A stretch of DNA of 64,000 nucleotides, taken from assembly GCF_037042905.1 (NCBI RefSeq), contig NC_087250.1:7566001-7630000 (forward strand). The letters are read 5' to 3'. The notes beneath the pieces are model-generated. The model saw only the letters and a list, made by a program, of their open reading frames with translations, did not search any database and was not told where the DNA came from. Numbering within the stretch: the stretch's first letter is position 1; every line of letters begins with the position of its first letter. Below are positions 3,927-62,045 of the stretch, piece by piece. Made by a program: the position numbers and the translations under genes. The stretch is from Lytechinus pictus (lineage: Eukaryota).

Positions 3927-4660
3927 CCTATGGTCTGATCTGTAATAAATTGAATACAGTCCGACCTCTCTTATCCGGCCACGTTGGGACCAGCACCAAT
4001 CCGGATAAGGGATTTATCCGGATCTGGGAGACCCAATATTAAATACACACAGCTGCTGCCTACCCAACATTAGTGGCGGTAGCTACACGTTATCTATTGT
4101 AGTGGGCGTACAGACAGTATTCACTGCTGTGTCAGTGCAATTTATAGGCGGTATTTTTACGGAAATGAAATCGATCGATGGCCAAAACTGTTGGATAATT
4201 TACCTGCTAAAATGATAGAGGTATAAATCGAGCATACGTCAAAAGAAAGAGAATGACTCGATGCAAATATAGCTTATCAGAGATAGTTCACAGAGCAATG
4301 TACTTTTCAAAGATATTACAAAGTTTCACAAATTTCTATTTGTGCATACTGCAAATCCTGTTGGCTACAGATATGTAAGGATATTAAATATTCAGTCTAG
4401 CCAAAATCAAAACACTGAAATGTGCGTTCGACTCTGCAAATGTAAATGTGTAATCAAATTGTATTTAATGGAACTTGTAAATTTCATGTAATTCCGCCTT
4501 TGGGCTGACATGCATTGGTTTTTTAATAAATATCATTTTACTACTTGACTACATGAACAACTACTTTTAGTTACTAGTTATTGGTGACCTTTAAGTGTCT
4601 TTGCACTTTGAAGGGTCAACAGTACTGTCATCTATTGATTCAACCCATGAATCTACTTAC

Positions 4661-7600
4661 TAGTTATTGGTGACCTTTCGAGGGTCTTTGCACTTTGAGG
4701 GGTCAACAGTACTATCATCTGATCCTCCATTCAGCCCTCCTCCACCCGGTCCTCTGTTCCTTTGCTGGCGCTGGACGCGACTTGAACTGGACTCTCCGCT
4801 CCGGGGCGTCTCCGTCAGCTGAGATCAAGAAAATAGGGTCGGGAGGTCAGAGTTCAAAATATAAAACTTCTTGTAAAAGATGCCAAAAATCTCCCTATTT
4901 ACAGACCTTTCTTACGAAAAAGAAAACTTGTATTTCTCTCACCTTGAAACATTCAACTGTCGTCTGTCTCATGTACTCATGCGTTCTTTTCCGGCTCTCT
5001 GATGAGGATGAACTTTGACCTTTGCCCTCTGACTTGGTATGAGGTCGAAGGTCAATCTCTACTTTGAGGAAGCAGTCCCGAAACCGTAGAAGATGACTGC
5101 GGAAACATTAAGAATAATTCACACCCTTTAAAATTATGACAACTATATGAGACCTCCCAGCTGAAAACCAAAAATGAATCAGCTAAAAATCAAATTAGAG
5201 TAGATTTTAAGCTTTAAGATGCTATAAAACTTGCAAAAATTCATCTACTATTCTTGTATCACGATTCAGTAGATGATTAAGAGTAGAATTAATAACGAGA
5301 GGATATTTGCTGCTGAAGAATGAGATGTGTGCAACATTTACTCTTTTCTACGTCATCAATTATTTTCATCAAGAAATTGCTTTTTCCCCATTTCTGGCTG
5401 AAATTTCAGGACTTCATTTTCTAACAGAAGCAGAGCTGCCAACAAGAACAAGATTATTTCAATACTTTCAAAGCTGAAAATAAGTATTTTTGTGAGAAAA
5501 TCAGTATTTTCGAAGTAATGCAATAGGACAACACATAAAACTGAAACTCTAGAAATCAGTATTTGGCATGAAACTATCAGTATTCTTCTCAAATTTCAGT
5601 TCTTTTTTACTGAAAATCAGTACTACTTGGCAACTCTGCAGAAGGTTGAGGGGTTACACTTTCAGGTATTCTTGTCATGCAGTTTATAGTAGGCTTTATT
5701 AAAACCATCTTATAAACTGCGCGGCAAGCCTTGGCAGCTTTGCTGAAGGTTGAGTTGTTACACTTTCAGATATTCTTGTCATGCAGTTTATAGTGGGCTT
5801 CATTAAAACCCTTTATAAACTGCATAGCAAGATTCTCTGTAAACAGCTTATTGATAATTCTGAAGTTTATGAAAAAAAAATTATAAATAAAAATTATCTT
5901 ACAGATAGAAGGAACAGGACAGGAATTTATTTTTCATTGAGAAGGTAATTATGACAAAATATGCCAGAATTCAAGTGATATAAAACTTTTTCTTTCTGCG
6001 TGTAAGATTTGCTGGCAGCATAACCTTCATGTAATCTTTTGCTTGTCAGATTTTTGGCCAAGAATATGCTGACCCACTAATTCATCAACCCATTCATTTA
6101 GTGTTTTCATTGACACTTGTTAAGGTTCCTAATTCAACACTTTAACACTCAAGTTCATGTAACACAAGATAACATTCTTACCTTAATACTCGAACACCAA
6201 AATACATATAACACTTATCAAGGTTCTTACCTTATAAACACTCAAACACTACAATTCATGTACCAGGAGTTAAGTTACTTAACACTCTGAACACTACAAC
6301 TCATGTAACAGGTGTCAAGGATCTTCACTCGAACACTGAAATGTACATAACACATGTTAAGGTTATTACCTCAACACTTGAAGAATAGAGTTCATGTAAC
6401 ACGTGTTACCCAGATTCCTCAGTCCAGTAACACCCGGCGTTAACACCGTCCACTTCCTCTTAATCGGTGTTACAACCTTCTGTACCCGCTTCGCCACCTT
6501 CGGATGCGAGCTACCACTGGCATTAGTCTTTGTTTCAATTCTACTAGGGTCTTTGAATGATATCTCATTATCCCCTGAGTTCTCTTGACGTTTTGGCGCG
6601 GGGGCGCTCTTGGCCGGCGTCTTGTGCCCCGTGACTTTGTCGCCGTGGACGAGGCGTTTCCAGGCGAGGAATGTTGTCGAAAGCAGCATGAATCGTCGGT
6701 GTATGAGGGCGGTATGACCCTTGTCTCGCATAACAAAGTTGTCATCTCGCCTGTAAAAAAGAAGAAAGAATTTCAGCTATAAGGTTATGTTCAGTCTTGG
6801 GGATTGATGCAGTTTTCTGCCAAGATCGACCCCTCTAACACAAACTTGGCAATTAATCTTAGGGCTGATATCTATGCCTGATTACATTTATCATCTGCAA
6901 TCAAATCACTTTACAATCAATCACTAAATTTTGTGTCGAGAGCCCCTGGCAAGATATAATATCCCTTAATTTGAAAGCAATAAAGACACTTCACTTTTAA
7001 TAAAATCTTAATGCTATCCAGTTGTATTTCTTTTGTACATGTTGATTATCTCTCCCAGATATCTCTATCTCCATCACCGCTGCCCAAGGTCCCCCCCCTA
7101 TCTCTTTCTCTCTCTGTCTTTTTTCATTTCTCTGTTCCTCTCTCACCCTTCTCTCTCTCTCTCTCTTGTTATCTCTCTTCTTACTGAAAACTAAGTGGAC
7201 TTGACTCCATAGATAGAAATCCTAAAACCTCTCTATATTCCTCCCTCTTTCTACATGTACTTTTTTAATACTGAAAAATATGTTTTAGCCGACCCCATGC
7301 CATAGACAGAACCATTTACATTTTCTCTCTCTTCCCATCTCTTCTTTCTTTCTTACTCTCCCTCTCTCCCTCCACTTACCCATGACTATGTTTAAGTTGA
7401 CTGGAATCCACCGATAAGGCTCTTAAAAACCTTCTCCTTCCACCTCTCGATGCGTTTTCTTCAAACGTCTGTTTCGTGATTACGTCAAGCGTGTCACGCA
7501 AGAACTTCAGATCTCCTGTCACGTTGTCATTCAGGATGTAGTCATCGCACTCATAACTATAAGAAAAATTTACAGATACATCGTTATTGCTCATAAATGG

Positions 7601-9615
7601 GACTACAAGTAACTACAACACATCAATACAGGCACAGCATCTTTGCTTATAAATGGGGCTACACATAACTGTAACTTAGAAAGACAACATTTTTGCATGT
7701 AAGTGGGACTACATATAACTATAGCTCATACCCTGTGATACATTATTGTCATCAAAGGGAGCTACATACCCTTATGAAACATAAATACCGTATGGGCACT
7801 AGTATTCAACCCGGCATAATTCAAAGATTTGGACAAAGTCCCCCAAATATTTAGAAATAGGGAATTTATCTTAATTTCATACCTTTGTTATTTCCAGTGT
7901 AATCTGTTGTCGGTATTTTCTTTATCAATCTGTCGACTGTATGCGCGGAGGATCGAATTATGCGGCGATGGCCTTTTGCACTGAAATGCACTAGTATTCA
8001 ACCTAGTGATGATAGATGGCTAATTTCAAAATGGTTTAGATTGCTAAATTAGATCTAGATTTATGTAAGTCTCTGGCTTTGATTAATTCCCTGTTTGTTC
8101 TCATCTCAATTGGTCTAGTCCATAGTCGGATGGGACAAGGGCAGATTGAAAGACAGGGCCATCTTTCATCGCTAGGTTGAATACTAGTGCCGACGGATTG
8201 AATACTAGTGCCAAAAACCATCGCCGTATAATTCGATCGCCCGCGCACACAGTCGATGGGTTGAAGAAAAAAATAACGGAAAAAAAATAACCAGCATTTG
8301 CTCTTGGAAATAAGACGGGTCTGAAATTCAGGTAAATTCTATATTTCTATATATTTGAGGAAACTCTCCAAACGGGTTGAATACTAGTGCCCTTACGGTA
8401 CCCTTTATAAAGTGGCACAGTATGCAATTATAGCACATACATGGAATTGCACAACATTATTGCTTTTGGATGGGACTACTATTACTTAAAAGGTAGTGAT
8501 GAATAATGATTGATGATCACAACGGTGAAGACGGATGATTAATGATAATTGATTATTGATGACGATGATGATGATGATGGTGGTGACGACTACAATGATT
8601 GGAAAACTGATCTTGATATTGTTACCTGTGATGATATGGATAATGATAATGAAAATCAAAGTGATGGTGATAGTGATTATGATGGTGGTGGTGGGAATAA
8701 TGATCACAATGATGATTATGATGGAGGGTAAATGGCAACAATGGTGAAAATATGAGCATCAGTATAAATTCAAGGATAACTGTGTGAAGAGTTCAAACAC
8801 CCAAGTTTTACAGAAATTTTCCTTACCAATAGACGTATCTCTCATTGACCTCAATGGCTAGCGGATGATTGCTTTCCTTGAAGTGCCTCAGAGCGTGTTC
8901 CTCGTTGTAACGGCCACATGCAACGTTGGTACAACTCAGACAAGCCTAAAAACAAGACATACAATCAATATCAGAAGGACAGGCTACATATTTCTGTGTT
9001 CAACAATGAAAAAAATAAACAATTTCAAGGAATTCACAATTCACAGAAAACACAATTTAAGGCAACATCTGAATTATGAAAAAAAAATGAAAATTTTGAA
9101 AATAAAAGCAAAATCTACATCTAACAAAACTTTGCATCAGTTGAAAACCTGCTGATCAAATCTATTTGCACTGTTTAGCATGTGTTTGCCAAGTTTATAG
9201 ACTTACCTGTACTGCAGTATGTGTAACAGTGCTGAACAGTATTTTGGAATCAAGGATTCAATTGAAGATACAATTAGATTGCAAAGTTGGTAACTTTCAA
9301 TTATGCAACTGGGTCCCGGTGGGTGTTTCATAAGGCTGTTTGCGTAATGTTATTGATCAATAAGCAGTAGTGTGCATCCTCTTTGCATGATCTGACCAAT
9401 GCGGAAGAATGCCTATTATACCGTAAGCATCAAGCCATTTAAGTACGACTTTAAGTCATACTTAAATCTTTTTGAATCGCCCCCCCCCAGCGCATGCCAA
9501 GACTTACCCAGACACTCTCTGTAGTCCCACATACTGAACAATGCCACTCTGAGGGGTCCAGGATAGAATGCGTTTGACCGACGCAAAGCTTCCCGACATG
9601 GCGGCAGTGATCCAT
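4661..9615 (-). CDS. USP44: Ubiquitin-specific protease USP44/USP49-like (ZnF-UBP plus start of USP domain), 3' partial
   Basis: Exons 9615-9508, 8945-8827, 7556-7380, 6750-6370, 5096-4943, 4818-4661, all GT-AG and phase-consistent. [10 protein letters not shown]...[35 protein letters not shown] (ZnF-UBP), [26 protein letters not shown] (Cys box), GLNGG motif. Probably co-orthologous to vertebrate USP44 and USP49. Confidence 0.92.
7786..8400. mobile_element. Palindromic MITE
   Basis: TACCGTATGGGCACTAGTATTCAACCCG...CGGGTTGAATACTAGTGCCCTTACGGTA with internal inverted symmetry. Confidence 0.8.
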
Positions 9616-12958: not shown

Positions 12959-12989
12959 CATAGAGATGTATACTAACTACATCTCTATG
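12959..12989. mobile_element. 31-bp palindromic mini-element with 8-bp target-site duplication
   Basis: AGGGACAC|CATAGAGATGTA-TACTAAC-TACATCTCTATG|AGGGACAC. Confidence 0.8.
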
Positions 12990-13628: not shown

Positions 13629-13637
13629 GGATGGACC

Positions 13638-13711: not shown

Positions 13712-13752
<41 letters not shown>

Positions 13753-21539: not shown

Positions 21540-22100
21540 GTGCATCTCCAATGGCATAATCATTATCAAGTACCTGTCAATGCTTTGCTAAAGGGTTTGG
21601 GAACCATTCTATTCCTGTCTAAACAGAGAGTGGTAACCCATCTCACTTTTTAAAGATCTGCATCTCCCATGTTTTATGCACTAACAAGTGTCCTTCACCA
21701 TCTTGTGCAAGGGTTTGGTTACCATTCACAAGCTGACATATAATCAAAGACTGGTAACCCATTTCATTTCTCAGAGAGAAAGTACATCTCCATTGGTTTA
21801 TGCACAAACAAGTGTCCATCACCATCTTGTTCCAAGGTTTGGTCACCATTCAATAGCTGTCATATACACAAAGACTGGTATCCCATCTCACTTCATAGTG
21901 AGGAAGTACATCTCCAATGGCCTGTTAACTTTCCAGTGTCTCTCATTATCAAGGGTTTGGTTACCATTAAATTGCTGTCATATAAACAAAGACTGGTATC
22001 CCATCTCATTTCTTACCGAGAAAGTACATCTCCAATGGCCGATTCACTTTCCAGTGTCTCTCGTTGACTTGTTCGAGGGTAAGGTTACCATTCAATGGCT
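21540..22100 (-). repeat. Tandem array (5 units of about 120 bp) of the RING1 last exon with its acceptor
   Basis: Units align to the exon [26 protein letters not shown] and its flanks. Confidence 0.9.
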
Positions 22101-28100: not shown

Positions 28101-28812
28101 TGGCAGAAATCTCTCACAGAACGGTCAAAATTCACATTTCACACTAATGAAAAGCTCTTATAATGTCCATATTTCCTAAAAATTGGGGTAACTGTCATTT
28201 GTAAGCAGTAAAAGGAGAAATTTTCACTTCTGTTTTAGTTCAAAGAGATCGGGTTTCGAGTGATATCGTCTGAATACATGATAGCCCCACATATGCATTT
28301 GTGTGTGTGTTGATACACTTGGTTTCTTTCGTAGCTATATCTTAATTGAGCCAAAAAGAAACTGATAATTTATTTATGATAGTTTTAGCTTTCTTCCTCT
28401 GTTTTCTTTCTATCTTTCTTTCCTTCTTTCTTTTCAATCTTTCTTTGTTTCTTCCCTCTCTTCTTTAATTTTTTTTGTTACTGTCTTTCTTTTTAAATTA
28501 TTCTGTCTTTCGTTCTTTCATTCTTTCTGTCCTTTTAACATTTTTCTCTATTTCTTTTTCTCTTTCTTTTTTGATTTCTTTCTTTCTTTAATTCTTGAGT
28601 CCATCCATCCTATATTTATCTCTTCTTTCTTTCTTCCTTTCCTTCTTTTTACCCTTTCTTTCCTTCATTCTTTGTTTCTTTCTTCATTCCATCCATCCTT
28701 TCTTTACCATTTCTTGTTTTTTATTTCTTCCTTCTTTCAGCCCTTTCTCTCTTTCTTTCATTCATTCCTTCCTTTCTGTTCTTTCTTTTTTTCCCTTCAT
28801 TCCATCTATCCT

Positions 28813-28849
<37 letters not shown>

Positions 28850-48000: not shown

Positions 48001-51000
48001 CCGTCATCATCATCACCGCTACCACTGCCATCATCATGACCACCACCACCATCATCATAATCGCCATCATCATCATAATCACCTTCATCATCACCGTCAT
48101 CACCATCATCATCATCATCATCTTGATCACCAACACCACCTTTATCATCACCAATATCCGGAAAAGACTATTCCTTTAAAAGTCATTTTTGTCTTTTTGC
48201 CGCCCCTAACCCAGGACTACTGTGATGGTGGTAACCTAGATGAGAGGATACAGACGGCCAAGCACCGAGGAAAACCGTTTGATGAGGGACGTATCATGCA
48301 ATGGTTTATCCAACTCGTCATGGCTGTACAGTACATACACTCCAAAAAGATATTACACAGGTAAAACATAAAATCAGTAATCAGGGGGACTTAAAGGGAT
48401 GCTCTGGGCTGAGAACAATATGATTTAAACAGATAAAGAAAAATCAGACAAACAAAACACTGAAAATTTGATCAAAATCTGACTAGGAATAACAAAGTTA
48501 TGGCATTTTAAAGATTTGCATTATTCCGGTGAAACAGTTCGAGGCATGTCTTTATGAATATTCAATGAGCAACTTGATGATGTCATATCCCCACTTGTTC
48601 TTTTGTATTTTATTATATGGAATTAGGTTTATTTAAATTTTTCTTCCAAGAACTGCAAAAAATGGATTGGCAACTGATTTAGTGCATTAGATATTCATTG
48701 CTGCTACATATTTCATAATAAAGGAGACACATTATTCACACATGTATGAAAAAATGAAACAAATTATGATTTTTTTCTTGTAATAACATAAGTAAAAACG
48801 AAAGTGGGGATGTGACATCATCAGCCCACCTAATGAATATTCATGATGATGTGCATACGGCTATTTTCACAAAATATTGTTAAACTTTAAAATTCATTAA
48901 CTTCATTATTTGTTACCGATTTTGATGAAATTTTCAGCATTTTGCTCTGTGAATTTTACTCTATTTTATTTGGAAACATCAGCTCAGAAAAAGCCTGTTG
49001 ATGATAATAGTGCTCCTTGGAAAAAGATTATTTCTAGGTGAATCAGAATGGCGCTATATAAATTCTTTGTAAAGTTTTATTATTATTTTCATTATGTGTT
49101 TTGGTTGAATTAACTTAAGTTATTAATTCTCAATTCATTTTATGGGAATATTCTGTTCATTCAACACTGTATATTGTATTTGTGTCTTTCAAACTATGTT
49201 ATTTTATTCAACAGAGATCTAAAAACACAGAATGTCTTCCTCACAAAGAATGATGTCGTCAAGCTAGGTAAGTTCATCTTTCCTTTGTCCATTCATTTAT
49301 TTATTTATTTTTTTAGTATATACACTGTATATCTAATGGTTTTCTGTACAAGCTCATCAAGCTGTTGTATGACACATTATTTTTGTGAGTTGCTAAATTT
49401 ATTTCTCAATGGCATCTTGGTACACAAGAACAGACACTTCTATAGTACTTATTTGATTATTGTATGTATTCAATCATTTGTTACTTTTTAGATCTTGAGT
49501 AGAAACTCAAAGGGAGAGATATATATTTCCAACCAAACTAACTGAAAATATAACTGTGCCTGTCAATCATATGTTCAATTATCTATTATTTACTTTAGTT
49601 TATATCCTCTTGTTCTACAAGCAGTTGGCCTACTTCTCAGCAAGTCTAATTTAATTGCACATGGGCTAAAATATTTTATTTGGTCCACCAAACTGTCTTT
49701 TTGGTCTCATTGCGGTTTGTGGTCTATTCTACACTTGTTCTAGTTACCACTTTAGTCCCATTTGCATTTAGACCTGTGTTTCATCAACATTTTCATCCGA
49801 CAAGTTGTCAGATCTGACATCTTTCTCTGATGTTGATTAGCTGAGAGGTACTGTTACTATGGTAACTGTAGGATAAAATGGGACTTGTCGTATAAAACGT
49901 CCGACAAGTCCATTCATGAAACGCTCCCCTGAGGGTCTCATTTCCACTTTATCAACTACATGTACATGTAATGTATTTTTTCAAATGGACTATGTGTTGT
50001 GAGACCAAGTGAATATTAGACAAAATGGATATAGCCTAACTGAAATTAGACAAAATTATATACATGTTTGGTCTAGATAGCAGTTAGACCAAATGCTTAC
50101 TAGATGATCTGGTTGTAGATGAACTAAGATTAGACTCTGACGGATGAGACCTCACAAAAAGTAGGCAAAGCTGGTGTAGACCAAGTAGGAATTGGTTTTA
50201 GTGTATTTACTTCCTCAAATGTATTCTTACTGTCCATAAATGCATGAGATTTTCTGTGACTCAGCGTGAGATCACAGAAATTATTTATATATGGGGATAG
50301 GCTGTGATTCAGGCGTGAGAAAGAGAGTTAGATGGGATGAGCAACAGCCCTAATGCAGAAATCTCACACATGATGCATGAGACTTGGTATGTCTGACTGT
50401 CCCATATTCATACATGTATTTTTTTTATTCTGAAGGTGACTTTGGAATATCTAGAACATTAGAACACACCGTAGACAAGGCCAAGACCTGTGTTGGGACC
50501 CCATGCTACCTTAGTCCAGAACTATGCCAGGACCAACCCTATAACAACAAGTCTGATGTTTGGGTAAGTCCTAGAACAAAATTGATCAAATCCAACATTG
50601 GTTAGTGGCCTTGACTTACAATGTAAATCCCCAACTTTCTGTTCTACAAAAAGTAAAACTGGGGACCTTAAACTTGACCTATTCAGGGATGTTTCATCTT
50701 GAGTAATTGCCATGATTTTACATCAAACTGTCATCCAATAGCATTACGTCAAACCCCCATTTGGAGAAAGACCGCAGTTCAGATTGCAAACTGCGGTTCT
50801 ATACCCCATTTTGCATTTGTAAATCCCAAAATCATTTCCAAGCCCAGGGGGCCGTTTCATAAAGCTGTTTGTAAGTTAAGAGCGACTTTAAGAACGACTG
50901 GTGATCCTTTCTCGCGCGCTAAATCATCGCCAATGGTGTGTACCATTTACCGCAAGACCTGATCACCAGTTGCTCTTTATTTACGAACAGCTTTATGAAA

Positions 51001-54000
51001 CACCCGCCTGATCAACCCCGCTAGGCCAGGTAATCCCCGCTGTCACAATTTTACCTCCACAGGCCAGATTATGAGCGTTGAGCCAAGGACAAAATGATAA
51101 ACAACAGCTGTGCTATTACGTAAGACTTCTCTGCCTGTAGTAGGACCTTTGGAATGAAATTATTGTATTCGATATTTAATCACGTTTTCAAAGGCATATT
51201 GTATTCAGAAATCCAATGTTAGTCCATTTTAAATTTCGAACGAAGAAAATCGACCTCGAAATAAGGAAAGTAAGTCAATTAAAATGACGGCATGCTTTGC
51301 AGGGACCGCGCTCATGCTGTTGTGTTATCTTCGGACCGAGGTCAAGAAACAGGTGTTTTGATACTTAAATTGCTTGCTTGGGACAGTTATGGTTTGTCGT
51401 ACTTGGAGAAGATAATTGATTGAGGGAAACTGGGGTATAGTGTTCTCAAATGGAGGTTTTCGTAATGGACCAAGTTTTATTGTGAAAACAGTTTTTGCAC
51501 TTTACGCTTTTGCCCTTCATATAAAGGCCATTAAATTAAAAACACCTTCTCTCCTTGCAGTAAGCTCTGAATATAAGGCAAATCAACTTTTGTGGGAAAA
51601 AACTGCCTTGGAATCACTTTTGGTCATTGGCAATCACCTTCATCATATTGGAATAATGCACAGTCATTTCCATTTTATTTAGCATTCATACACAATAGAC
51701 CCTTTATTGTTACCTCCTTCATAATGTTGATAGTTCTTATTTGATTATAATTTGTTAATTTGCCAGTATCTATTAATTTCATGTATTTTTCTATATTCTG
51801 TCAACTTTGTATGTGTCAGTCGCTGGACTGTTTTGCAATGTCTTTAATGCAATAAACCAAATTGAATTGAATTGAATTGAATTGAGTGATGGTAGTTTCA
51901 ATCCTTTTCAATAGATCATACAGTATTTCTAATGCAATGTACATAGCGTGTGAAAGAGCCTAGAGATTAAAAACGATATGGACAAATAAATCCTCTTCTT
52001 ACATCCAGGCTCTTGGTTGTCTCTTGTACGAGGTGTGTGCGTTTGAGCCGGCGTTTGATGCTCACAATCTTCTTAGTCTGTATTACAAGATCGTCAAAGG
52101 TGATAACCCGGTAAGTATAGCACCAAATAAGCTTGTATATTGTCACTTTGGGATACCCCAAGGCTCAGTTCTTGGGCCCCATCTATTTTCTATTTCATTG
52201 TACTGCATATGATTATGGTATGATGGATAAAGATGATTTGCAGTTAGACATTACATTTTAACTGTCGTATGAGGTGGGTGCGTTTGAGCCTGCATTTGAT
52301 GCTCATAATCTTTTTTGGTCTCAATTACAAGATCATCATTTTTACTTATGGGAAATTGTTTATCTCTGAAAACAAGGACTTTACATTTTAACACAATTCC
52401 CTTGACTTTACTATGATTAATTTTCAGATTATTCCGTCCATGTACTCTACCGACCTTCAAGGATTATTAGCGTTCATACTAGAAAAGGATCCAGATAAAC
52501 GTCCAAGGTAAGTACTACAAATTATGTTCAATCTTACAATTAATCATACAATCAATTTTGCAATCAGTTTTAAAGTCTTTTTTGGACACTAGCTGCGTGG
52601 TTTGAATCCCAACATGGCCTAGCATCCTTTGGCAAAGCGTCAAGCCTCACTTTATTACTCTCCACCCAGGTGTTAAATGGGTACCTGGTAGGATGGGTTG
52701 GGGGAGGGGTGGGTGGTCCCGATGATTTTTCAAGTTGTAAAATAGAAAAAGAGGAAGAAAATGTAAGAAGAGAATTGTGATTCTTTTTCCCTTTATTCAG
52801 TTGGAAAAAAAATTATATCACCTTTACAAGGTCTTACCCCCCCCCCCCCTTATACCAAAATTCAAAGAGCTTGTCTGTATGGACTTCATTTTACATCTTA
52901 GTTATTCATTCATAGTGGCTGATCATATAGATAACATAAATTACTCTCGGGCCTTTTCGGTTAAAGTGGAGACAATGGCTGAGTAGGGATTTGAACTCAC
53001 AACCTCACAATCATAAGTCTAGTGCTCAAACCACGAGACAGCATGACCCTATTAATTGGATTGTATTATTTTTATTCCAGTGCTACAACGATACTCTCAC
53101 AGGATTACATGCAAACCCACCTAAGTAACTTTATTGCAGAAAAAGAGCTTCTGCAGCAGCAGCTTGCAACGACAAAAGCCACCAGACCACCGACAAGCTC
53201 CTCCCCCATAGCGAGGTCAAAGGTCACCAGTGTCGCAAACACATCCAGGTAGGTTTTGCCTTGAAAGGACATTAAAAAATAATAATAGCTGGATTTATTA
53301 AGCGCTTTTTGCCTGAGGATACAAAGCGCTGCTATTATTACCCTGGCTTTAGCTGTGCTGCCTTATAGGCGCTGAAACGTTCAAGGAATTTCTTCCTACC
53401 CTTCACCTCACCTGGGTTGAGTGCAGCACAAAATAGGTAAATTTCTTGCTGAAGGAAAATACGTCATGGCTGGGAATGGAGCCCACATCCCTCAGAATGA
53501 AAGACGAGAGTCATAACCACTAGACCACGATGTCACCATGTTAATGTAAATGTTATTTACCTTGGGCAGTGTTCATAAGGCTGTTCTTAAGCATGACTTT
53601 ATGCACCATTTGTTGTGCTAAATGAGGTTACCCAACGTAGTGCAAGAGACTATCCAGTTACCAAGATTATATATATATATTATATGTGGAGCGTTGTGGC
53701 CCAGTGGATTAGTCTTCTGACTTTGAAACAGAGAGTCGTGGGTTCGAATCCCAGCCATGGCGTAATTTTCTCCAGCAAGAAATTTATCCACACTGTGCTG
53801 CACTCAACCCAGATGAGGTGAATGGGTACCCGGTAGGAAGAAATTCCTTGAATGCTCTGAGCGCCTAGGCAGCCCAGCTAAAGCCGGGGTAATAATAATA
53901 GCAGGGCCCGCTGGGAGAACAGTTTTCAGAACTGAAGTGGCTTCCCTGGGTAAATATGCCTATATTATTATTATTATTTTCTTATTTCTGTTTTTATTAT

Positions 54001-57000
54001 AACAAATTAAATTCAATTACAAAATTTGCACCTGATTATAAGTGATTGAAAATCACATAAACACAAGTTGGTTGCCTCCGACGAAGATTCTGCTAGGATC
54101 GAAAGCTTAGGCCCCTTTTTGACTTTCTAATTTACTCCATTAGCTCTCTTTTATTAGATAAGCAGTTTTCAGCAGCTTCTTTTTGCCACAAAAAAGAAAA
54201 GTAACAAAAGCAATAATAGAATAACCTTGATATGTTGACAAGTAAACATTACATTCAGATGCTTATTAAATGGAAAATTCAACGTGATCATTTGGTGTCA
54301 CAATAAAGCAGAAAAAAAAGGAGAAAATATTGGTAAAAAAAGTTTTGACAAAAAACCATCAAAGAATCATAAAATTATGACTTTTTAAAGTTTATTATAG
54401 AATGGATGAGAAAATCCCTGCAATCTGATTGGTTGTGAGCTGTGCAAGAATTTTTACTGGGCTGCATGAACGATATCCCGATAATCAAAACGATATCTAC
54501 TGTAAACAAGCTATCGTCCGAAAAGGTCATTGTGATGTCATCGCGCATGTACTGTTACGCTTGTTTACGTCAAAATTTTGAATTTTCGATCAAGGCAGAA
54601 TGAATCAAATAAAGGATGCAAAATGATCTGTAAGTACAAATACGGTACCGTAATTGTCATAGGATTAAAACTGCCAGCATACTCATTAGTTGAGAAGTCC
54701 AGACATATTCTAATGTTAGATCTACTGCATTGGACTGGCTGTGCATGGCCAAATCTCCACTGCAGGCCCAGGCAGCCGTAGGCGTAGGCGCTGACCCCGG
54801 CGCGGCCCGGGCATACACACACAGCTATTGGAGGTCTGAGGCTGCCTCATATCTAGTCAATGCAAAGCTGTATCTGGCATTTTGGGTATAATAATGCTTT
54901 TGTGCCAATATATTATCAAGTTAGGCATACATATTTATGTTGTCCAGGGTAATCAAAGGGTCTGCATTACATTTTGGAATTTTCATGCATCCGGTTAATA
55001 AATAATGCGTCCGGTAAATTTTTTCATGGGTCCGGTAAATTGAATTTACCGGACGCATGAAATTATCATGCATCCGGTAAATCATTAATTTTTGTGGTTT
55101 ATTCAATAAATTTTTTCCATTCTATAAAACAGATGATGCATGGGTTTCTTTCGTGGGTCAGTGGAACTGTGTGCACGCGGTAACTTTGGCATTATGGTCT
55201 AAACCCACTCGGCTGCGCCTCGTGGGTTAAACCATGCCAAAGTTACCTTGTGCACACAGTTCCTACTGACCCACTCTAACCCATGCATCATTTGTTTACT
55301 TGAATATGTGACATCATTTACGACCCCTACAGTCCATTCCCACAAGCCATTGCCATTTATCCATTGACCTTTGACCTTGTGTCCCATAGGAACCGTCCAA
55401 TGTCCGCAAGTCACAGGACGAGGGCATCTTTGCAAACGTCTAAACCTGACCGCTCTCCACCCAGGAGTAAGTCATCTCTAGCTATGCTGCCCTCTATGCC
55501 ACGGTCATACACAGGGGAAGCCATGAAGGAATCACCAGGTATGGACCTTTGTAATTTCAAGGAGAAGTTCACCCTGATGAGAAAAAATTCGTAAAATAGC
55601 AGAAAAATAATAAAAGAATATTAGTGAAGTTGAGGGAAGTCTATCAAAGATTCACCCATATGTTCGATTTGTTTGTTTTGTTTGTTTGTTTCATTAAAAC
55701 TAACTTCTCTCTAAGATTAACTTTCACTTTTAGGGAATTAAATAATATTTTTCATTTTTATAATGTTTTTTCAGGTCTACCTCCCATTATCCGTCCGCCT
55801 CTCGAACCCAGCGAATCGGGCGACTACCCCGACGACTTTGACAGTAGCGATGATGAACGGGATAGACCGGATCTAACTAGGAATAATGAAGCACGCCCTC
55901 TGGTGAAAGCATCGAGACAGGAATCTGAGATGGATTTAGAAATACCGGAAGAATGCGAGTCTCCTCTCAACTCCGATGAAGGTAAATACATATTGACCGA
56001 CTGTAGTATTTAACCCCCATACAAATATATGTAGGATTAACCCATCACAGGACTTTTTGTAGGTCCGAACTAATCACCTCGGATCCTCAAATTGGCAACA
56101 GTATCTATGTGTTTTTGTTCTTACATGTAGTTTTAAAAATATATAAGCATATGGATATACTATGAACTACATGTATAATTGTGAAGTTCAATCAAAATTG
56201 CCAATTTGAAGATGTAAATAATCACTGTATACTACCGTGTTGCCAATTTATTCAGATGTAGTGATCTGTTTATACAAATGAAGTTCTTGAATTTGGAATG
56301 TAAGTCACCACAGAACTCACTGATGAAAGTAAAGATATATCGACCAAATAATCACTGTACTATCTATCCCTTATAGGATTAACCCACAGTAATACATTAA
56401 TTTCTTGAGGTGTCAATTAATCATCTGTGATCCTTAAATTGGCAACAACATTATCTATTGATTTTCATCTTACTTTAAAAAAATATATATATGGACAATA
56501 CATGTAACAAACTGAAACATAATTGCAGAGATTAATCAGCAGGGATGTTGTCAAGGCCGGCCTTGGCGTTAGCCTCAGGGCCCGAGTCGCATAAAAAGTC
56601 TATGGGAGAAAGTTTTTTCCAGCGGCATCGACTACATCCCCGTTAATCAGCAATCCAAGTAGAACACAGAGATATTGACTATACCAGTAGATTGTTTCTT
56701 GCATTGCCAATTTAAAGAGTTTACTGATCACATACTCATGAACTGCTCTTATTTGGAGGGTGAGTGTATTCTTGTGAAGCCAGAGGTATACCAACACATC
56801 GGACCACTGTATTATCTAATCTCTGTAGGATGTACTTTAAAGGGCATTTGACAGCCCAAAAATACAGATTTCATGCATAAATTAACATAATAATTGTGTC
56901 GCATTTAAGTATCAAGTTTCAAACCTAAGAGTATCTTTGCACATCTTTCTGCCTGAAACTTTTCCTGGAATTATTTCATGTCGAGAGACAAAATGTTGAT

Positions 57001-60000
57001 GAAACGCCCCCTTTCCCCATTAGGATTTCACTTGGCTTCCGTTCATCTCTCATGTATTTTTTCGTTCATTTATCAGATATACCAGAGGAGCTAGAGGCGG
57101 AGGACGAAGGAGAAGAGAGCTTGATAGAAAGAAGAACTGAAAGAACAGAAGAAGGAGAAGAGGAGGAGTATGCAAGTGATTTTGAAGATGATGATGAGGT
57201 TCGTTGGCCAATGATGTCAGTCCTTATCATTTTGAGAGTTTTTAATCATATGTTAGGGTGAAGTGTTGATACGGTGATTACCACGATCCTTTAACTAGAG
57301 TCTCGTTGTGATTCCCTCACCCAGGGGCAGATTCAGGATTTTCCAAAAAGGGGGGGACACATTTTTCTGATGAAAATTTGAATTCGAGGTCATTTCGTCC
57401 TCTGTGAAAAATTTTACAAGCAAAAAAAGGTCCTCACTTTCAAAAGGGAGGGGGCACACTTTGGTGAAAAAGGTACATATACATTTAAACATTTTATTAT
57501 GGCTAACAAAAGGGGGGTTCGAGCCGGCTATGCCCCCCCCCTGGATCCTCCACTGCCCTCACCATTGGTGATTTTGAAGTTTGGTGATCGTAACTGGGTT
57601 CAGAAGGATGATATCGATCGCGTTATCAATATTTCGTATCTCATATCTCAACTTTACATGTGAAGTCTGGACAGTGAAAGTGAATTCGGGGTAGAAATAG
57701 TAGTAAAATCTTATTGTGTCGCATGCAAAAGTTAAATCACTTCAAGGATTCAAAAGAGTAAATACTATTGCTCATTGAAATATATAAAGCTCTAATGATT
57801 TGTTCTCATCTCAACTGCAACAGCTAGTTTTTCGGTGATGTTTCATCGTCATCTTGAGGTCGCCAACACCAACACCAAACTTGAAATCATGATTTTCCCA
57901 GTCCCTGGGATTGGTGTTGGCGAATGAGGAAATTACATGTAGATCGTCAACACCAGCTGTAATGCTCGGTTTAGCAGACGAGGTTCAACACCAGTGCTCA
58001 ACACGAACTGCTGGAAATGTGTAATATTTTCAAAGGTCAATCTCAACACCTGCGTCATTTCATGTACAGAGTTCTGGCTCTTTAGTGGCTGGTGTTGGTG
58101 TTGATGTTGCGGCTCGTGAGTGTTGCCACAACGCCAGATTTCAAACCCTACTTTACATCATCCTATGTATATCTCTTTGACTAGGTTCTTCAGGTTATTC
58201 TGAGCAATGCAAGGACTGCGGCCAACGTTGATGTTCAGAATAGTGATGGGGACGATAGCTTTATAAATTCTTGTATTATTACATTTCTTTGACTAGGTTC
58301 TTGAGGATATTCTGAGCAATGCAAGGACTGCGGCCAATGTTGATGTTCAGAATAGTGATGAGGACGATAGCTTTATAAATTCTTGTATTATTACATTTCT
58401 TTGACTAGGTTCTTGAGGATATTCTGAGCAACGCAAGGACTGCGGCCAATGTTGATGTTCAGAATAGTGATGAGGACGATAGCTTTATAAATTCTTGTAT
58501 TATTGCATTTCTTTGACTAGGTTCTTGAGGATATTCTGAGCAACGCAAAGAACTGCGGCCAATGTTGATGTTCAGAATAGTGATGAGGACGATAGCTTTA
58601 TAAATTCTTGTATTATTACATTTCTTTGACTAGGTTCTTGAGGATATTCTGAGCAACGCAAGGACTGCGGCCAATGTTGATGTTCAGAATAGTGATGAGG
58701 ACGATAGCTTTATAAATTCTTGTATTATTACATTTCTTTGACTAGGTTCTTGAGGATATTCTGAGCAACGCGAGGACTGCGGCCAATGTTGATGTTCAGA
58801 ATAGTGATGAGGACGATAGCTTTATAAATTCCTGTATTATTACATTTCTTTGACTAGGTTCTTGAGGATATTCTGAGCAATGCAAGGACTGCGGCCAACG
58901 TTGATGTTCAGAATAGTGATGAGGACGATAGCTTTGAAGATTCCACCAACCTCTCAGATGACATCACAAGCTGTCGACAACTTTTAGCAGAGTGAGTACT
59001 GTAGAGTAGCCTTGTACAGGTAAAAGAATGTAATTGCAGCAAACAATTATTTCTTGAGAACGTCTTTTTTAATATCAAGGTTAATTGTCATCACATTAAC
59101 ATAGATCTAGATCTGGTAAAGTAATGTAAACTTAATTTAGTGAAATCATGAAATTTTAGCTGAAAAGCAAAAACTCTGAAGATTACTAACGCTGGAAAGC
59201 ATATGAGGGACAGTGTACCAATATTGCTTGGAAAGAGACCCGACATTTGATGGAATTCTGTACTTATTTTGCTAATTTCTCAGCAATTAAGCATTTCTTT
59301 CCAGAGTCATTTGACACATATTTTTTTATTCATACATACAAACACTTTTGTAGTCATTTTATTGGATTCTGATAGAACTAATCTAGATTTTTACCAAAAC
59401 TGTCATTAATATGTTAGCGAGAAGTCTTTCATCAAAGCAAAACAGGAAAAAACAACTTTTGTTTGCTTGAACCCAACAAGCCCTATTAATAGTGAATGCT
59501 TAGGTCTGCTAGGAGATTGTATCTTAACGTTATGATTTTGTATTTCTTCTTTCTACAGTGAATGCAGAGGTGTTCTGGGAAATGATATCTTCTCTGAGAT
59601 TGAATCTAAAATTCGGGAGAATCGAGGGAAAGATCTTGATCCCGATCAACTAAGGTGAGTTGCTTGAACTCTTTGTGCGCCGGGCCATGATCCCCTGTGT
59701 GCTTGAATTTTTCAGCGAGGGATCAGGAGCAGTGAATGAAATAGACTTGCTCAATTCAACTTGCTATGACTTTTCACTGCAGTATTTTGAGGGGAAATGT
59801 TTCACGGCAAAGTTGTAGAGAATTTCACAAGCTTTCTGACTGTATAATATGACTAGTATAATATAATAATATGACTACAATAATATAGCGCTTACAAACA
59901 ATGAGTATTAAGCACTTTAGAAATGTTGTTTATCATTATTATGTAATTTTTTTTTTTGTAATGATAAGAAATTTGGTAAATAATGCCTAATTTCACACAT

Positions 60001-61182
60001 ATATATGGTATTATTGTGGCAAAGGATAAATACAGTGGATTGTTTGTTTGAGCGTGATATGTGAAGTTTGCGCGGCACCTAGTGTGTATTGGTGCGAAGT
60101 ATGCATGGAAAGAGCTAAAGGGATTGAGTAACTTTGTGGAATTTTGCAAAAATCTGAGTTGTGTGGATCTGTATGATGTCAGTGCATGCGATAATGTGTC
60201 AAGAGGAAACCCTGAAAATTTATTACATAGGCATTATGACATGCTTCACAATAAGAAAAAAAGTGATAATTTTCCTTCATAGCCTATAGTGTTTAATTTA
60301 AGTGTCCATAGAGTCGCTTGATACTGTAGTTTTCATTGTGGCAGCAATTAAGCGACCAATCAGCTGGAAAAAAAATGTTGGGTTATATTATTCCTGCGTG
60401 ACTTTTTAAGTTTTGTAATGATGAATTATATATTAGCTGCAAGAGAAATATATTTGTAGGTCCTGAGTGAAGTTGAACAGAGAGACGAGGAGAAAAATAA
60501 ATAGAACTTGAGAGAGAGAAAAAGAGAAAAGATGAAAGAAACAGAGGAATAGAGAGAGTGAGAAAGAAGAAGGATATTAATCCTGATTAGCGGAGTTGAG
60601 TTGGGTTGGGTTCAGTTATTTCAGAATTTGTACACTCTGCGCACATGTGGACCATTAACTACTAGGTTAGATCCGATCAACCACAACTATGGAAAGCCAG
60701 CAACGCCAACATCTAAAATGCATGTTTGTTCAAAATGATTTCTAGATATGATATATAACTCTTATATTCATTGTTTTCTTGAAAATTTGGTGTGTTCACT
60801 TTTATATAAAGGACAGTGTGCAAATTTTGTGTATGAAAAATCATGACACTGATGGATTACCATATTGTTGAGGTTGATCTGATCGATCGAAACTCTTTGC
60901 AAGATTGGGCCAAGAAGTCTACCAAACGCACATTAACAGAATTATAGCATCTTTAGCTGGAGAAGTTAAATCTGGTGTTGGGCTATGATAAAGTATTTGT
61001 GAAATCTATGCTTTGCTTTTTATCTATTTTCTCTCTTTGTGTTTTTTTTTCTTTCCTGCAGACTTCAGTTTGAGGAAGCCATTGGCAGTGAAAGAATGGA
61101 AACATGCTACCTTCTTAGCGAACTTCTATCTGAGGTTGATGATACTCAAAGTAGAAAGATGGGAACATTACCAGTCTCATGA
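45057..61182 (+). CDS. NIMA-related (Nek family) Ser/Thr kinase, about 586 aa, with an acidic linker and C-terminal tail
   Basis: Exons 45057-45139, 45619-45696, 47009-47102, 48215-48360, 49215-49267, 50436-50563, 52009-52110, 52428-52507, 53081-53248, 55390-55538, 55775-55981, 57077-57198, 58858-58991, 59559-59654, 61062-61182. Motifs [58 protein letters not shown] are typical of Nek kinases. Exact paralogue not assigned. Confidence 0.92.
45680..46520 (+). repeat. Degenerate C-rich tandem array seeded at the Nek exon 2 donor
   Basis: GAGAGAAGCAAAGTAAGAATAC followed by CCCCACCCC tracts, repeated with variable unit length. Confidence 0.85.
46703..46913. mobile_element. MITE (GGGGTGTTTCACAAAG termini)
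   Basis: About 30-bp perfect inverted termini; relatives near 9320-9485, 18170-18355 and 50847-51005. Confidence 0.8.
47320..48155. repeat. ATC/ACC trinucleotide tract with a 54-bp higher-order unit (about 10 copies to 47875)
   Basis: CGTCATT recurs every 54 bp (47351, 47405 and onward). Confidence 0.9.
53277..53535 (-). mobile_element. tRNA-derived SINE, head-to-head with the 53688 copy
   Basis: Similar to the 30090 copy throughout, with a degenerate B box. Confidence 0.75.
53688..53977 (+). mobile_element. tRNA-derived SINE
   Basis: A box TGGCCCAGTGG, B box GGTTCGAATCC, core AATGGGTACC and (TAT)n tail. Confidence 0.85.
58179..58936 (+). repeat. Tandem array (112-bp unit, 7 copies) containing the Nek exon 13 acceptor and exon 5' part
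   Basis: GACTAG|GTTCTT starts at 58179, 58291, 58403, 58515, 58628, 58740 and 58852. Confidence 0.95.
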
Positions 61183-62045
61183 TATATTTAGTAATTTGAA
61201 AGAATGGTAACCTGCTATCATCTTAGAGAATTTCTATCAGATGTCATGATACAGAAACTAGAAAGATTGAATCGCTACCAGTCTTATGTTATGTATTCAG
61301 TGATTTGAGAGAATGGTAACATGGTCCCTTCTGAGTGAGATTCTATCAGACATTAATGATACAGAAACTAGAAAGATGGGATCGCAACCGGTCTCATGAT
61401 ATTCATTCAGTGATTTGAGAGAATGGTAACCTGTTATCGTCTAAGTGAATTTCTATCAGATGTTAATGATACAGAAACTAGAAAGATGGGATCGCTACCA
61501 GTCTTATGACATGCATTCAGTGATTTGAGAGAATGGTAGCATGGTCCCTTCTTAGTGAGCTTCTATCAGATGTTAATGATACAAAAACTACAAAGATGGG
61601 ATCGCTACCAGTCTTATGACATGCATTCAATCATTTGAGAGAATGGTAGCATGGTCCCTTCTTAGTGAGCTTCTATCAGACATTATTGATACAGAAACTA
61701 GGAAGATGGGATCGCTACCAGTCTTATGACATGCATTCAATGATTTTAGAGAATGGTAACATAGTCCCTTCTTAGTGAGATTCTATCAGACATTAATGAA
61801 ACAGAAACTAGAAAGATGGGATCGCAACCAGTCTTATGACATGCATTCAATAATTTGAGAGAATGGTAACATGGTCCCTTCTAAGTGAGATTCTATCAGA
61901 CATTGATGATACAGAAACTAGAAAGATGGGATCGCTACCATTCTTATATTATGTATTCAGTGATTTGAGAGAATGGTAACATGGTTCCTTCTTAGTGAGA
62001 TTCTATCAGACATTAATGATACAGAAGATTGGGTTCACACCAGTC
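61091..62045 (+). repeat. Tandem array (about 110-bp unit, about 9 copies) starting in the Nek last coding exon
   Basis: GAATGG(A/T)A recurs at about 61094, 61202, 61311, 61421, 61531, 61641, 61751, 61861 and 61971. Confidence 0.92.

Follow-up and report, generated by a model that had tools for sequence, protein, structure and literature searches.

Tandem arrays of exon-edge sequence in three adjacent sea urchin genes: what looks like ordinary local duplication tolerated by splicing in a repeat-rich region

Tandem exon duplication can give rise to alternative or mutually exclusive exons. Shorter repeats that straddle exon boundaries have been described in human genes. Intron 7 of human F7 contains a 37-bp minisatellite whose first unit lies across the exon 7-intron 7 boundary; the authentic donor is reported to be the most upstream one and the only one used, and identical pseudo-sites follow it (PMC1557585). 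In genes of human segmental duplications, variable tandem repeats at exon-intron boundaries alter gene structure, with 27 intron modifications reported after manual check (PMC2812944). Our literature search returned neither a duplication process focused on exon edges nor a systematic report of exon-edge arrays in sea urchins, although such a search does not prove their absence.

Here, we analyzed a window of 64,000 nucleotides from Lytechinus pictus (contig NC_087250.1, positions 7,566,001 to 7,630,000), which holds the beginning of a USP44-like gene, a RING2-like gene and a Nek-family kinase gene (Table 1). Exon models based on tblastn with sea urchin orthologues place 30 coding exons in the window (6 USP44-like, 9 RING2-like and 15 Nek) rather than the 31 counted in an earlier note made from the sequence alone. 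The remaining six exons of the USP44-like gene lie to the left of the window (locus L082), and protein P0002 is 100% identical to the Nek gene in 5 exons. Arrays are designated U, R and N for the USP44-like, RING2-like and Nek genes, followed by the number of the coding exon. The nine arrays claimed earlier were all recovered in place by self-BLAST, and Tandem Repeats Finder detects six of them. Seven produce ladder-like offsets in self-BLAST, while U6 and N7 are single extra copies, hence duplications and not arrays in the strict sense. Repeated protein matches in tblastn likewise reveal R4, R7, R9, N7, N13 and N15. As judged by tblastn and sequence reading, every array derives from the edge of the adjacent exon, one copy being the real exon edge. 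Four are donor-side, two are acceptor-side, two lie at a last coding exon and one repeats an internal exon piece. A tenth array (U9), donor-side, was found at USP44 exon 9 just outside the window, which brings the affected exons to 10 of 36.

The structural claims of the earlier note held. Seven arrays carry a splice site, a donor in U6, U4, R7 and N2 and an acceptor in R4, N13 and R9, and two, N7 and N15, copy exon sequence only; the end unit spans the exon-intron boundary in those seven and in U9, but not in N7 and N15. The functional copy stands at one end, as had been claimed: it leads the donor-side and terminal arrays and closes the internal acceptor-side ones. For internal exons this position is a geometric necessity and adds no further finding. 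The spread of divergence is equally real, copies ranging from 100% identical (two N13 units) down to about 64-70% (N2 and the most distal R7 and R9 units). A weaker case lies ahead of the acceptor of USP44 exon 3: about three units of 50-55 bp resembling the acceptor and first exon bases can be discerned by eye, but neither Tandem Repeats Finder nor self-BLAST reports them.

Table 1. Genes, coding exons and arrays in the window, with the repeats detected
Feature	Position in window	Strand	Repeat detected	Basis
USP44-like gene, first 6 coding exons (aa 1-365 of 704)	4663..9615	-		tblastn P0026, P0028; own-genome protein search; L082
USP44-like exons 1-6	9615-9499, 8978-8829, about 7557-7379, 6749-6372, 5098-4934, 4821-4663	-		
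Weak case ahead of USP44 exon 3 acceptor	7557..7780	-		by eye only
U4, decayed donor-side array	6113..6402	-	self-BLAST 6113-6165/6350-6402 (81%)	self-BLAST, sequence reading
U6, donor-side duplication	4568..4720	-	self-BLAST 4568-4633/4654-4720 (91%)	self-BLAST, sequence reading
RING2-like gene (RING1/RNF2 family), 9 coding exons	22009..36888	-		tblastn P0146, P0147, P0145
RING2-like exons	36888-36853, 34511-34314, 33775-33653, 31881-31768, 30704-30402, 26475-26380, 25199-25056, 23749-23537, 22101-22009	-		
R4, acceptor-side array, exon 4	31823..32592	-	Tandem Repeats Finder 31826-32535, period 156, 4.5 copies, 90% matches	Tandem Repeats Finder, self-BLAST, tblastn
R7, donor-side array, exon 7	24469..25106	-	Tandem Repeats Finder 24750-24960, period 90, 2.3 copies	Tandem Repeats Finder, self-BLAST, tblastn
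R9, array of last coding exon	21540..22115	-	Tandem Repeats Finder 21591-22104, period 124, 4.2 copies	Tandem Repeats Finder, self-BLAST, tblastn
Nek-family kinase gene, 15 coding exons	45057..61182	+		tblastn P0001-P0005
Nek exons 1-8	45057-45140, 45617-45697, 47004-47102, about 48215-48361, 49204-49275, 50435-50563, 51979-52113, 52428-52559	+		
Nek exons 9-15	53079-53249, 55388-55543, 55774-55980, 57076-57219, 58858-58992, 59539-59655, 61060-61182	+		
N2, donor-side array, exon 2	45683..46494	+	Tandem Repeats Finder 45723-46174, several rows	Tandem Repeats Finder, self-BLAST, sequence reading
N7, copy of internal exon 7 piece	52026..52338	+	self-BLAST 52026-52096/52267-52338 (85%)	self-BLAST, tblastn
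N13, acceptor-side array, exon 13	58168..58944	+	Tandem Repeats Finder 58174-58935, period 112, 6.8 copies, 97%	Tandem Repeats Finder, self-BLAST, tblastn
N15, terminal array	61089..62069	+	Tandem Repeats Finder 61089-62026, period 110, 8.6 copies, 87%	Tandem Repeats Finder, self-BLAST, tblastn, RNA depth, organism-B contig

The units differ in what they take from exon and intron. The U6 unit runs from about 56 nt of exon end through the donor into about 30 nt of intron, and its single decoy, 86 bp downstream and 91% identical, has GTAACT in place of the donor GTAAGT. U4 consists of about 5-6 units of about 50 bp, each of which couples the last 40 nt of the exon, the Cys-box codons, to the donor and to about 10 nt of intron; by our own count, two of its decoy donors, AAG/GTAAGA, match the consensus at 7/9 positions versus 6/9 for the real GAG/GTAATA. 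The R7 unit, about 90 bp, joins the last 46 nt of the exon and the donor to about 44 nt of intron, and its three decoy donors show, respectively, the same GTTAGT core, a change of GT to GG, and GTTATT, the decoys being 83%, 77% and 73% identical to the functional unit. In N2, an old and C-rich array, the nested subunits measure about 40 and 80 bp and are drawn from the last 15-20 nt of the exon plus the donor; four of its six decoy donors keep the 9-mer of the real site, AAA/GTAAGA. On the acceptor side, the 156-bp R4 unit takes in about 111 nt of the intron 3' end, crosses the acceptor and reaches 45 nt into the exon, and four decoys lie upstream of the functional copy; in the 112-bp N13 unit, about 30 nt of intron lead through the acceptor to 82 nt of exon, and six decoys precede the functional copy with a higher-order period of 337 bp. 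The R9 unit, about 120 bp, carries the acceptor and 31 codons with their stop, followed by about 20 nt of 3'UTR, and the two nearest of its 3-4 decoys retain an open frame up to the equivalent stop. The 110-bp N15 unit consists of the last 91 nt of the coding sequence, the stop and 16 nt of 3'UTR, and its roughly 8.6 copies lie within the transcribed 3'UTR. The N7 copy, a piece of about 71-79 nt, 85% identical and devoid of a splice site, sits in intron 7, 241 bp downstream. Across all arrays, between 6 and about 111 nt separate the unit breakpoints from the splice junction (the shortest intron part, about 6-7 nt, is that of U9); the breakpoints coincide with neither the junction nor a branch point, and the exon part ranges from about 15 to 93 nt. 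Arrays without exon sequence occur too: an AATTC array starts 3 nt from the acceptor of RING exon 5, and GAT/GGT arrays start about 15 nt past the donor of USP44 exon 10 and a few nt past the inferred donor in locus L042.

Identity falls with distance from the functional unit in R4 (95%, 95%, 87% and 74%), in R9 (82%, 76% and 70%) and in R7. The five interior N13 decoys are 96-100% identical to each other, four of them 98-100%, versus 93-95.5% to the functional unit, and the N15 decoys mostly 78-94% (72-80% for the truncated last unit) versus 71-79% to the functional copy. The closer kinship of N13 and N15 decoys to each other and the gradients in R4, R7 and R9 are signs of turnover inside the arrays. 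Whole-genome matches of the N13, R4 and N15 units, the three arrays searched, were confined to their own locus, and the remaining six arrays contain sequence of the neighbouring exon. A dispersed or transposon-borne satellite was considered and rejected on the basis of the three units searched.

Listing and reading of the sequence yields at least 26 decoy splice sites, 13 donors and 13 acceptors, ten of them identical to the real site across the motif compared. These counts support the earlier suggestion that the spliceosome faces many decoys, to which RNA depth at one array adds slight support. The RNA data cover positions 48190-63900, with Nek exons 4 to 15, in runs X1, X9, X10 and X11, and consist of binned depth, dominated by reads of dispersed repeats, and one contig. 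No Nek intron occurs among the 15 junction rows listed ahead of 1434 others, the table being filled by dispersed-repeat reads. The N13 decoy units are nearly absent from steady-state RNA: stranded depth over them (58146-58669) is 0.22 and 0.06, values in which loss by nonsense-mediated decay would hide decoy use, and 8.0 and 11.0 in the following bin, which holds the real exon. Over the N15 array, stranded depth reaches 9.2 and 9.45. A 576-nt contig of organism label B maps to 61052-61332 and then to 61451-61684, with N15 about one unit shorter. From tblastn, the L. variegatus Nek model P0003 runs through the N13 unit junction and ends within a decoy unit; the N13 array thus appears to be present in a second species.

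The number of arrays was compared with two null models, a coverage null in which exons are circularly shifted over repeat-covered positions, and a seed null in which a 110-150 bp duplication is required to overlap an exon. For the nine arrays of the window, the coverage null gives a mean of 6.07 (P=0.12) and the seed null an expectation of 1.0-1.5 (P about 1e-5 to 1e-6). Since array growth inserts DNA and does not overwrite the flanks, coverage and placement nulls provide a conservative bound and are physically less apt. At the regional density of 0.28-0.38 arrays per kb, the seed expectation becomes about 2.3-3.1 by our own arithmetic. There is thus a two- to four-fold local excess at exon edges beyond what density alone explains, the cause of which remains unexplained. 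For the rest of the genome, we sampled 48 short-ORF kinase-domain exons, of 57 eligible hits among the best 125 of 855 candidates. The other nine eligible hits are C7:3174886, left out as it adjoins L004, and eight more; a further two, with at least 3 stops, were excluded as likely pseudogenes. In this small sample from one protein family, whose exon ends are approximate, 3 of 48 exons had exon-derived local copies (L045, L062 and L065), versus 4.2 expected from coverage and 2.5 from seeding, and a five-fold genome-wide enrichment would yield three or fewer at P=0.0014. Among large-ORF kinase loci, one of 30 (L011) has a 103-bp duplication across the ORF end. From these two counts, the same classes of arrays occur elsewhere at about 5%, the chance rate. 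Protein and HMM match tables are unsuited to a wider survey of decoys, as scoring is restricted to the top candidates and the scores of short decoys are too low. The 10 of 36 exons of the three genes nevertheless exceed the 3 of 48 (Fisher P=0.0125) and the combined 4 of 78 (P=0.0013).

The region itself is rich in repeats. Local direct repeats occupy 14.3% of the window versus 4.3% of 162 kb and 4.4% of 110 kb sampled elsewhere, and contig C6 from 7.26 to 7.70 Mb has about three times the local repeats of the sample. At locus L062, on the same contig at a distance of 305 kb, 3.4 kb contain 6 arrays; of three arbitrary 3.3-kb pieces, those at 7.40 and 7.50 Mb contain 2 each and the one at 7.70 Mb contains none. 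Non-exon arrays in the window, 10 in about 60 kb, reach only about 1.3 times the sample density. The earlier note had proposed either that a transcription- or splicing-coupled mechanism directs duplication to exon edges, or that general duplication is filtered by selection. As a general process the former is not borne out, the enrichment at exon edges on which it depends being absent from the 48 kinase exons while the local excess remains; a splicing-coupled origin is further disfavoured because the unit breakpoints vary so widely in their distance from the junction. The latter fits better, helped by the roughly three-fold regional repeat excess.

We therefore consider it probable that the arrays are ordinary, locus-specific minisatellites produced by slippage or unequal exchange, and that they are tolerated as the exon-contiguous site is the one used. 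Each array would have been seeded by one short tandem duplication, of about 50-250 bp, that by chance lay across either an exon boundary or the coding-sequence end; the differing unit boundaries among arrays are as expected from such random events. One copy would stay contiguous with the exon and the other would fall in the intron or 3'UTR, so that the protein would be unchanged and the gene would gain a second, at first identical, splice site. By exon definition and 5'-to-3' scanning, the latter demonstrated by experiment in human F7, splicing would keep to the donor that comes first downstream of the exon body, or to the acceptor that comes last upstream of it, and because splicing would retain this site the duplication would be nearly neutral. 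Read in the real frame, the R4 and N13 decoys meet a stop soon past the unit junction (own sequence reading); use of these decoys would add early stops, and such transcripts would presumably be removed by nonsense-mediated decay. The array would then grow or shrink by slippage or unequal exchange while point mutation decays it and the decoys slowly lose their consensus. The many arrays found here would follow from the threefold repeat richness of this part of contig C6, and old arrays may stay recognisable longer because selection holds the exon copy constant.

A mutational process acting in these genes or this region and favouring exon boundaries as the starting points of tandem duplications seems rather unlikely to us. 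It could stem from transcription-associated breaks or polymerase stalling, from co-transcriptional splicing, or from exon-marked germ-line chromatin, and it would account for the local excess, both the nine exon-overlapping arrays over the seed null and the 10 of 36 exons (USP44 exon 9 included) over the kinase sample, as well as for the repeated duplication at the same edges recorded in the identity gradients of R4, R7 and R9, and for the arrays devoid of exon sequence that abut splice sites at RING exon 5, USP44 exon 10 and L042. However, the genome sample shows no enrichment and rejects a five-fold one, the breakpoints are scattered, the coverage null is not exceeded, and an existing repeat makes further events at the same place expected without targeting. 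The window may also have attracted attention by being extreme. That break repair linked to transcription, splicing or chromatin seeds duplications at exon boundaries in this region, or in these germ-line-expressed genes, is likewise unlikely.

Preservation of the arrays by selection, owing to some function of the decoys, strikes us as quite improbable. Where the real site is weak, decoys could attract U1 or U2AF to its vicinity; they could also modulate how efficiently a transcript is spliced or how stable it is, or serve as alternative terminal exons (last exon of the RING2-like gene) or, in Nek, as 3'UTR elements. The intact 9-mer in four of six N2 decoy donors, the two U4 decoys that outscore the real donor, the open frame and same stop of the two nearest RING2 terminal decoys, the apparent N13 array in L. 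variegatus and the transcribed N15 array shared with the organism-B contig all point in this direction. Yet other decoys are decaying, U6 having lost the G at +5 and R7 its GT or core, N13 decoys are nearly missing from steady-state RNA, chance could well leave 31 codons open in a diverged copy, and turnover accounts for the high identity inside arrays. False local duplications in a heterozygous long-read assembly, raised in the earlier note as a possible undoing of the arrays, are a general risk in heterozygous genomes to which no observation here lends support, and the 97%-identical N13 array could be mis-sized, but as an explanation they are highly improbable: copies differ by 3-35% with graded decay, unrelated loci hold similar duplications, and independent data support two arrays, N13 through the L. 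variegatus model that crosses its unit junction, and N15 through stranded RNA reads and the contig of the other organism label with about one unit fewer.

These arrays are natural experiments on splice-site choice. The real N13 acceptor lies behind six near-identical ones, the real N2 donor before four with the same 9-mer and the real U4 donor before two closer to consensus; they could serve to test the F7 rule, by which the exon-contiguous site is used, for acceptors and in an echinoderm. This genome tolerates duplications across exon edges at roughly the rate expected by chance, and through such duplications exon sequence adds to the length of introns and 3'UTRs. Decoy units are also a trap for gene prediction, the public L. 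variegatus Nek model stopping within one. Should the local excess prove mutational, it would point to an unknown link between gene structure and duplication; with targeted seeding, exon edges would be local hot spots that spawn decoys, lengthen introns and build 3'UTRs from coding sequence. On balance, the arrays look like ordinary local duplication tolerated by splicing in a repeat-rich region, rather than the product of a new exon-targeted process.

Compared with known systems, R9 resembles tandem exon duplication in that its copies span an entire coding unit, from acceptor through 31 codons to stop, with the nearest two copies open; as a general account tandem exon duplication was rejected, eight of the nine units covering part of an exon and at most one splice site. 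Intron gain by tandem genomic duplication shares the short duplication that yields an adjacent splice site of the same kind, but there an exonic segment is reported to be duplicated and a new intron to arise between the copies (PMC3265369, PMC4974935, PMC2891723). Intron gain was rejected for the urchin arrays, whose units hold 6-111 nt of pre-existing intron and to whose first or last copy the orthologue proteins align with no added intron. The human segmental-duplication cases were recognized through comparison of recent paralogues and often involve novel introns or alternative transcripts (PMC2812944), whereas the urchin genes are single-copy and appear both to retain their old splice pattern and to leave the extra copies idle in the intron. 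The human F7 intron 7 minisatellite is the closest precedent. The silence of its pseudo-sites is experimental, whereas the urchin arrays are known from sequence and binned RNA depth. Like it, U4, U6, U9, R7 and N2 are built of head-to-tail units of exon end, donor and intron start; unlike it, the urchin arrays number ten in three adjacent genes, have units of about 50-156 bp and extend to acceptor sides (R4, N13) and ends of coding sequences (R9, N15).

The genome holding the window spans 812 Mb in 368 contigs; the window, which is animal DNA, occupies G000:C6:7566001-7630000, and its GC content ranges from 34 to 53%. Peptides from window ORFs retrieved three kinds of sea urchin protein, a Nek-family kinase (called Nek6 or Nek4-like by the source records), a USP44-like protease and a RING2-like member of the RING1/RNF2 group of E3 ligases. 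By tblastn, the window contains 30 coding exons: 6 of USP44 (amino acids 1-365 of 704, minus strand), 9 of the RING2-like gene (minus strand) and 15 of Nek (plus strand), five of the latter being 100% identical to the Lytechinus pictus Nek protein P0002, which places the DNA in L. pictus or something very closely related. The remaining six USP44 exons were located directly left of the window by a genome protein search and in the fetched stretch L082. Mobile elements are also present. A Ty3/gypsy-like frame with a zinc knuckle and protease-like and integrase-like stretches lies within USP44 intron 6-7. Two facing Tc1/mariner-type transposase frames, an inverted duplicate since they are the same in amino acids over ~230 residues, occupy the sole GC-rich bin of the window (52.6%). 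A dispersed repeat family, probably a SINE- or MITE-like element, is very abundant in RNA and DNA runs, in which several bins reach depths in the hundreds and thousands of loose ends occur at 60670.

The observation of exon-edge arrays in all three genes is confirmed. Each of the nine arrays described in the earlier note was recovered by self-BLAST (6/9 by TRF) and, read in transcript orientation, has the adjacent exon's edge as its source (9/9). Reading of the sequence also agrees with the earlier count, in which seven arrays include a splice site and two do not; a weaker case proposed at 7550-7780 is visible to the eye only. The functional copy, i.e., the unit forming the real exon edge, stands at one end of the array as previously described, because no other copy adjoins the remainder of the exon. 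One further donor-side array, at USP44 exon 9, lies outside the window and serves as a check beyond the DNA on which the earlier note was based, and 10/36 exons of the three genes thus carry an array. Among the decoys (extra units with a spare splice site or exon copy), two donors of USP44 exon 4 outscore the real donor in consensus match, one donor of USP44 exon 9 (TTAG/GTGAGT) equals the real site exactly, and the final 30 intron bases of the Nek exon 13 decoys are nearly identical to those at the real acceptor. The two nearest decoys of the RING2-like last exon stop at the equivalent place, with 74% and 53% identity to the real C-terminus, and might serve as alternative terminal exons. Trinucleotide minisatellites (CAT/CAC or GAT/GGT) also lie directly beside splice sites, without exon sequence, in the window and in the fetched stretches L082 and L042.

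Arrays and neighbouring features (window positions unless a locus is named)
Feature	Position (strand)	Side; functional copy	Description
USP44 exon 4		donor; first	5-6 decayed units, ~50 bp; Cys-box codons and donor
USP44 exon 6		donor; first	single decoy, 86 bp downstream; donor weakened to GTAACT
USP44 exon 9	left of window, L082	donor	unit of ~85 nt exon end and just 6-7 nt intron
RING2-like exon 4 (R4)		acceptor; last	156-bp units; four decoys
RING2-like exon 7 (R7)		donor; first	~90-bp units; three decoy donors
RING2-like last coding exon (R9)		first	unit of acceptor, 31 codons, stop and UTR start
Two nearest R9 decoys	21767-21977 (-)		acceptor and open frame of ~30 codons kept
Nek exon 2		donor; first	old, C-rich; six decoy donors, 4/6 with the real 9-mer
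Nek exon 7			internal piece of ~71-79 nt; copy 241 bp downstream
Nek exon 13 (N13)		acceptor; last	112-bp units; six decoys
N13 unit junction read through in P0003	58291-58401
Nek last coding exon (N15)		first	unit of 91 nt CDS end, stop and 16 nt UTR; 8.6 copies
Kinase exon L045		acceptor	140-bp tandem duplication
Kinase exon L062	G000:C6:7259600-7263000		internal exon piece; copy 211 bp upstream
Kinase exon L065		acceptor	copy 423 bp upstream
Intronless kinase-domain ORFs, at least 11, near-identical (incl. L031, L033)	G000:C7:28966763-29009091		337-aa open frame; ~4.0-4.3 kb apart, a tandem gene array
Ty3/gypsy-like retrotransposon	3-2366 (-)		788-aa open frame; continues past window start
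Tc1/mariner-type frames	38294-38992 (-); 38956-39912 (+)
Dispersed repeat family	18606-18917; 19398-19946; 32719-33030; near 60670
Minisatellite	47280-48158		stops ~55 nt ahead of Nek exon 4 acceptor
GAT/GGT array	L082, about 1460-1959		begins ~15 nt past USP44 exon 10 donor
Minisatellite	L042, 1267-1506		begins just past donor of an unrelated kinase gene
(AATTC)n-type array	30707-31184		~50 units; 3 nt from RING2-like exon 5 acceptor (30704)

The arrays are local and real. Units of N13, R4 and N15, the three arrays searched against the whole genome, had no match beyond their own locus. The assembly artefact considered in the earlier note is contradicted by four observations. Differences between copies range from 0 to 35% with graded decay, in line with the near-identical to heavily decayed copies reported earlier. 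A 576-nt contig, from a run under another organism label, spans the N15 array minus about one unit. The public L. variegatus Nek4-like model P0003 (505 aa) terminates in a read-through of the N13 unit junction, and the N13 array therefore appears to be present in L. variegatus too; the decoy acceptors have probably misled gene prediction, leaving the model to end within a decoy unit. Finally, stranded RNA depth, binned and covering N13 and N15 (neither of them donor-side), was 9.2 and 9.45 across the N15 array, equal to exon depth. At N13, it was 0.22 and 0.06 in the bin with 4.5 decoy units and 8.0 and 11.0 in the following bin, which contains the real exon.

The earlier note had proposed either a duplication mechanism focused on exon edges or genome-wide duplication filtered by selection. 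Whether exon edges are favoured depends on the null chosen. The coverage null sets exon-sized pieces against repeat-covered positions; 5.7/30 non-exon pieces are expected to meet a repeat, or 8.7 when restricted to introns of the three genes, and circular shift gave 6.07 expected vs 9 observed (P=0.12). The seed null, in which the first duplicated unit must overlap an exon (110-150-bp units, non-exon array density from the window or the genome sample), puts the expectation at 1.0-1.5 arrays, far below the 9 that were observed (P about 1e-5 to 1e-6). We judged the seed null more apt and the coverage null a conservative bound; overlap of the seed unit with an exon is what counts because array growth inserts DNA without overwriting flanks. 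The genome at large was sampled through a Pfam kinase search, which listed 128 matches; 57 of the matches listed were eligible (hits in short open frames, i.e., exons of split genes), and 48 of these were taken with 1.5 kb either side. Exon-derived local copies occur at L045, L062 and L065, hence 3 observed vs 4.2 (coverage) or 2.5 (seeds) expected, and a five-fold enrichment would leave three or fewer of 48 with P=0.0014. A duplication was also found at one of 30 large-ORF kinase loci (L011, 103 bp, across the ORF end). Since the sample gave 3/48 and 1/30, duplications of the same kinds affect ~5% of exons genome-wide, which is the chance rate. The 48-exon kinase sample consequently lends no support to a general exon-edge-focused process; enrichment over non-exon sequence holds locally, under the seed null, and is absent from the genome sample.

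The three genes are richer in arrays than the sample (10/36 vs 3/48, Fisher P=0.0125; 10/36 vs 4/78 in the wider sample, P=0.0013), and the repeat-rich region explains part of this density. In the window, 14.3% of the sequence lies in local direct repeats vs 4.3% (162 kb) and 4.4% (110 kb) in the sample. L062, 305 kb from the window and the sole sampled locus on the window's contig, is the richest of the 48: 6 separate arrays flank its kinase exon within 3.4 kb vs 19 in total at the other 47, which suggests that the contig may include a zone prone to repeats. Of three 3.3-kb pieces chosen arbitrarily, those at 7.40 and 7.50 Mb hold 2 arrays each and the one at 7.70 Mb holds none. By our arithmetic, array density is ~0.38 per kb over 7.26-7.70 Mb vs ~0.11 per kb in other parts of the genome. 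With the regional value, the seed null predicts that about 2.3-3.1 arrays in the window would overlap an exon. Allowing in addition for detectability up to two-fold longer, as selection would freeze one copy, a ~1.5- to 4-fold excess remains for which no explanation was found; one candidate is chance combined with how the window came to notice.

Breakpoints vary from array to array (intron part of 6-7, ~10, ~30, ~30, ~44 and ~111 nt), and this scatter fits random straddling duplications, not products of splicing intermediates. Decoys of N13 and N15 are more alike mutually than to the functional copy, and N13 has two 100% identical units and a higher-order period of 337 bp, which argues that arrays may expand internally once a single seed event has occurred. 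Identity in R4, R7 and R9 drops with distance from the functional copy, a gradient consistent with repeated exchange at the exon-proximal end. By our reading, R4 and N13 decoys in the real frame meet stops just beyond the unit junction, so that mis-spliced RNA would be a target of nonsense-mediated decay.

Our literature search returned no comparable cluster, no acceptor-side arrays of this kind and none in echinoderms. The arrays belong to an already known kind, and it is their density in three adjacent genes that is unusual. Tandem repeats at exon-intron boundaries are reported to alter gene structure in human genes within segmental duplications (PMC2812944). Tandem duplication is also the raw event in one route of intron gain (PMC3265369, PMC4974935, PMC2891723), where its outcome differs from that in our arrays. 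The case closest to ours is a minisatellite in intron 7 of human F7: its first unit lies across the exon-intron boundary, and its pseudo-donors remain silent, the authentic donor being the most upstream of the series (PMC1557585).
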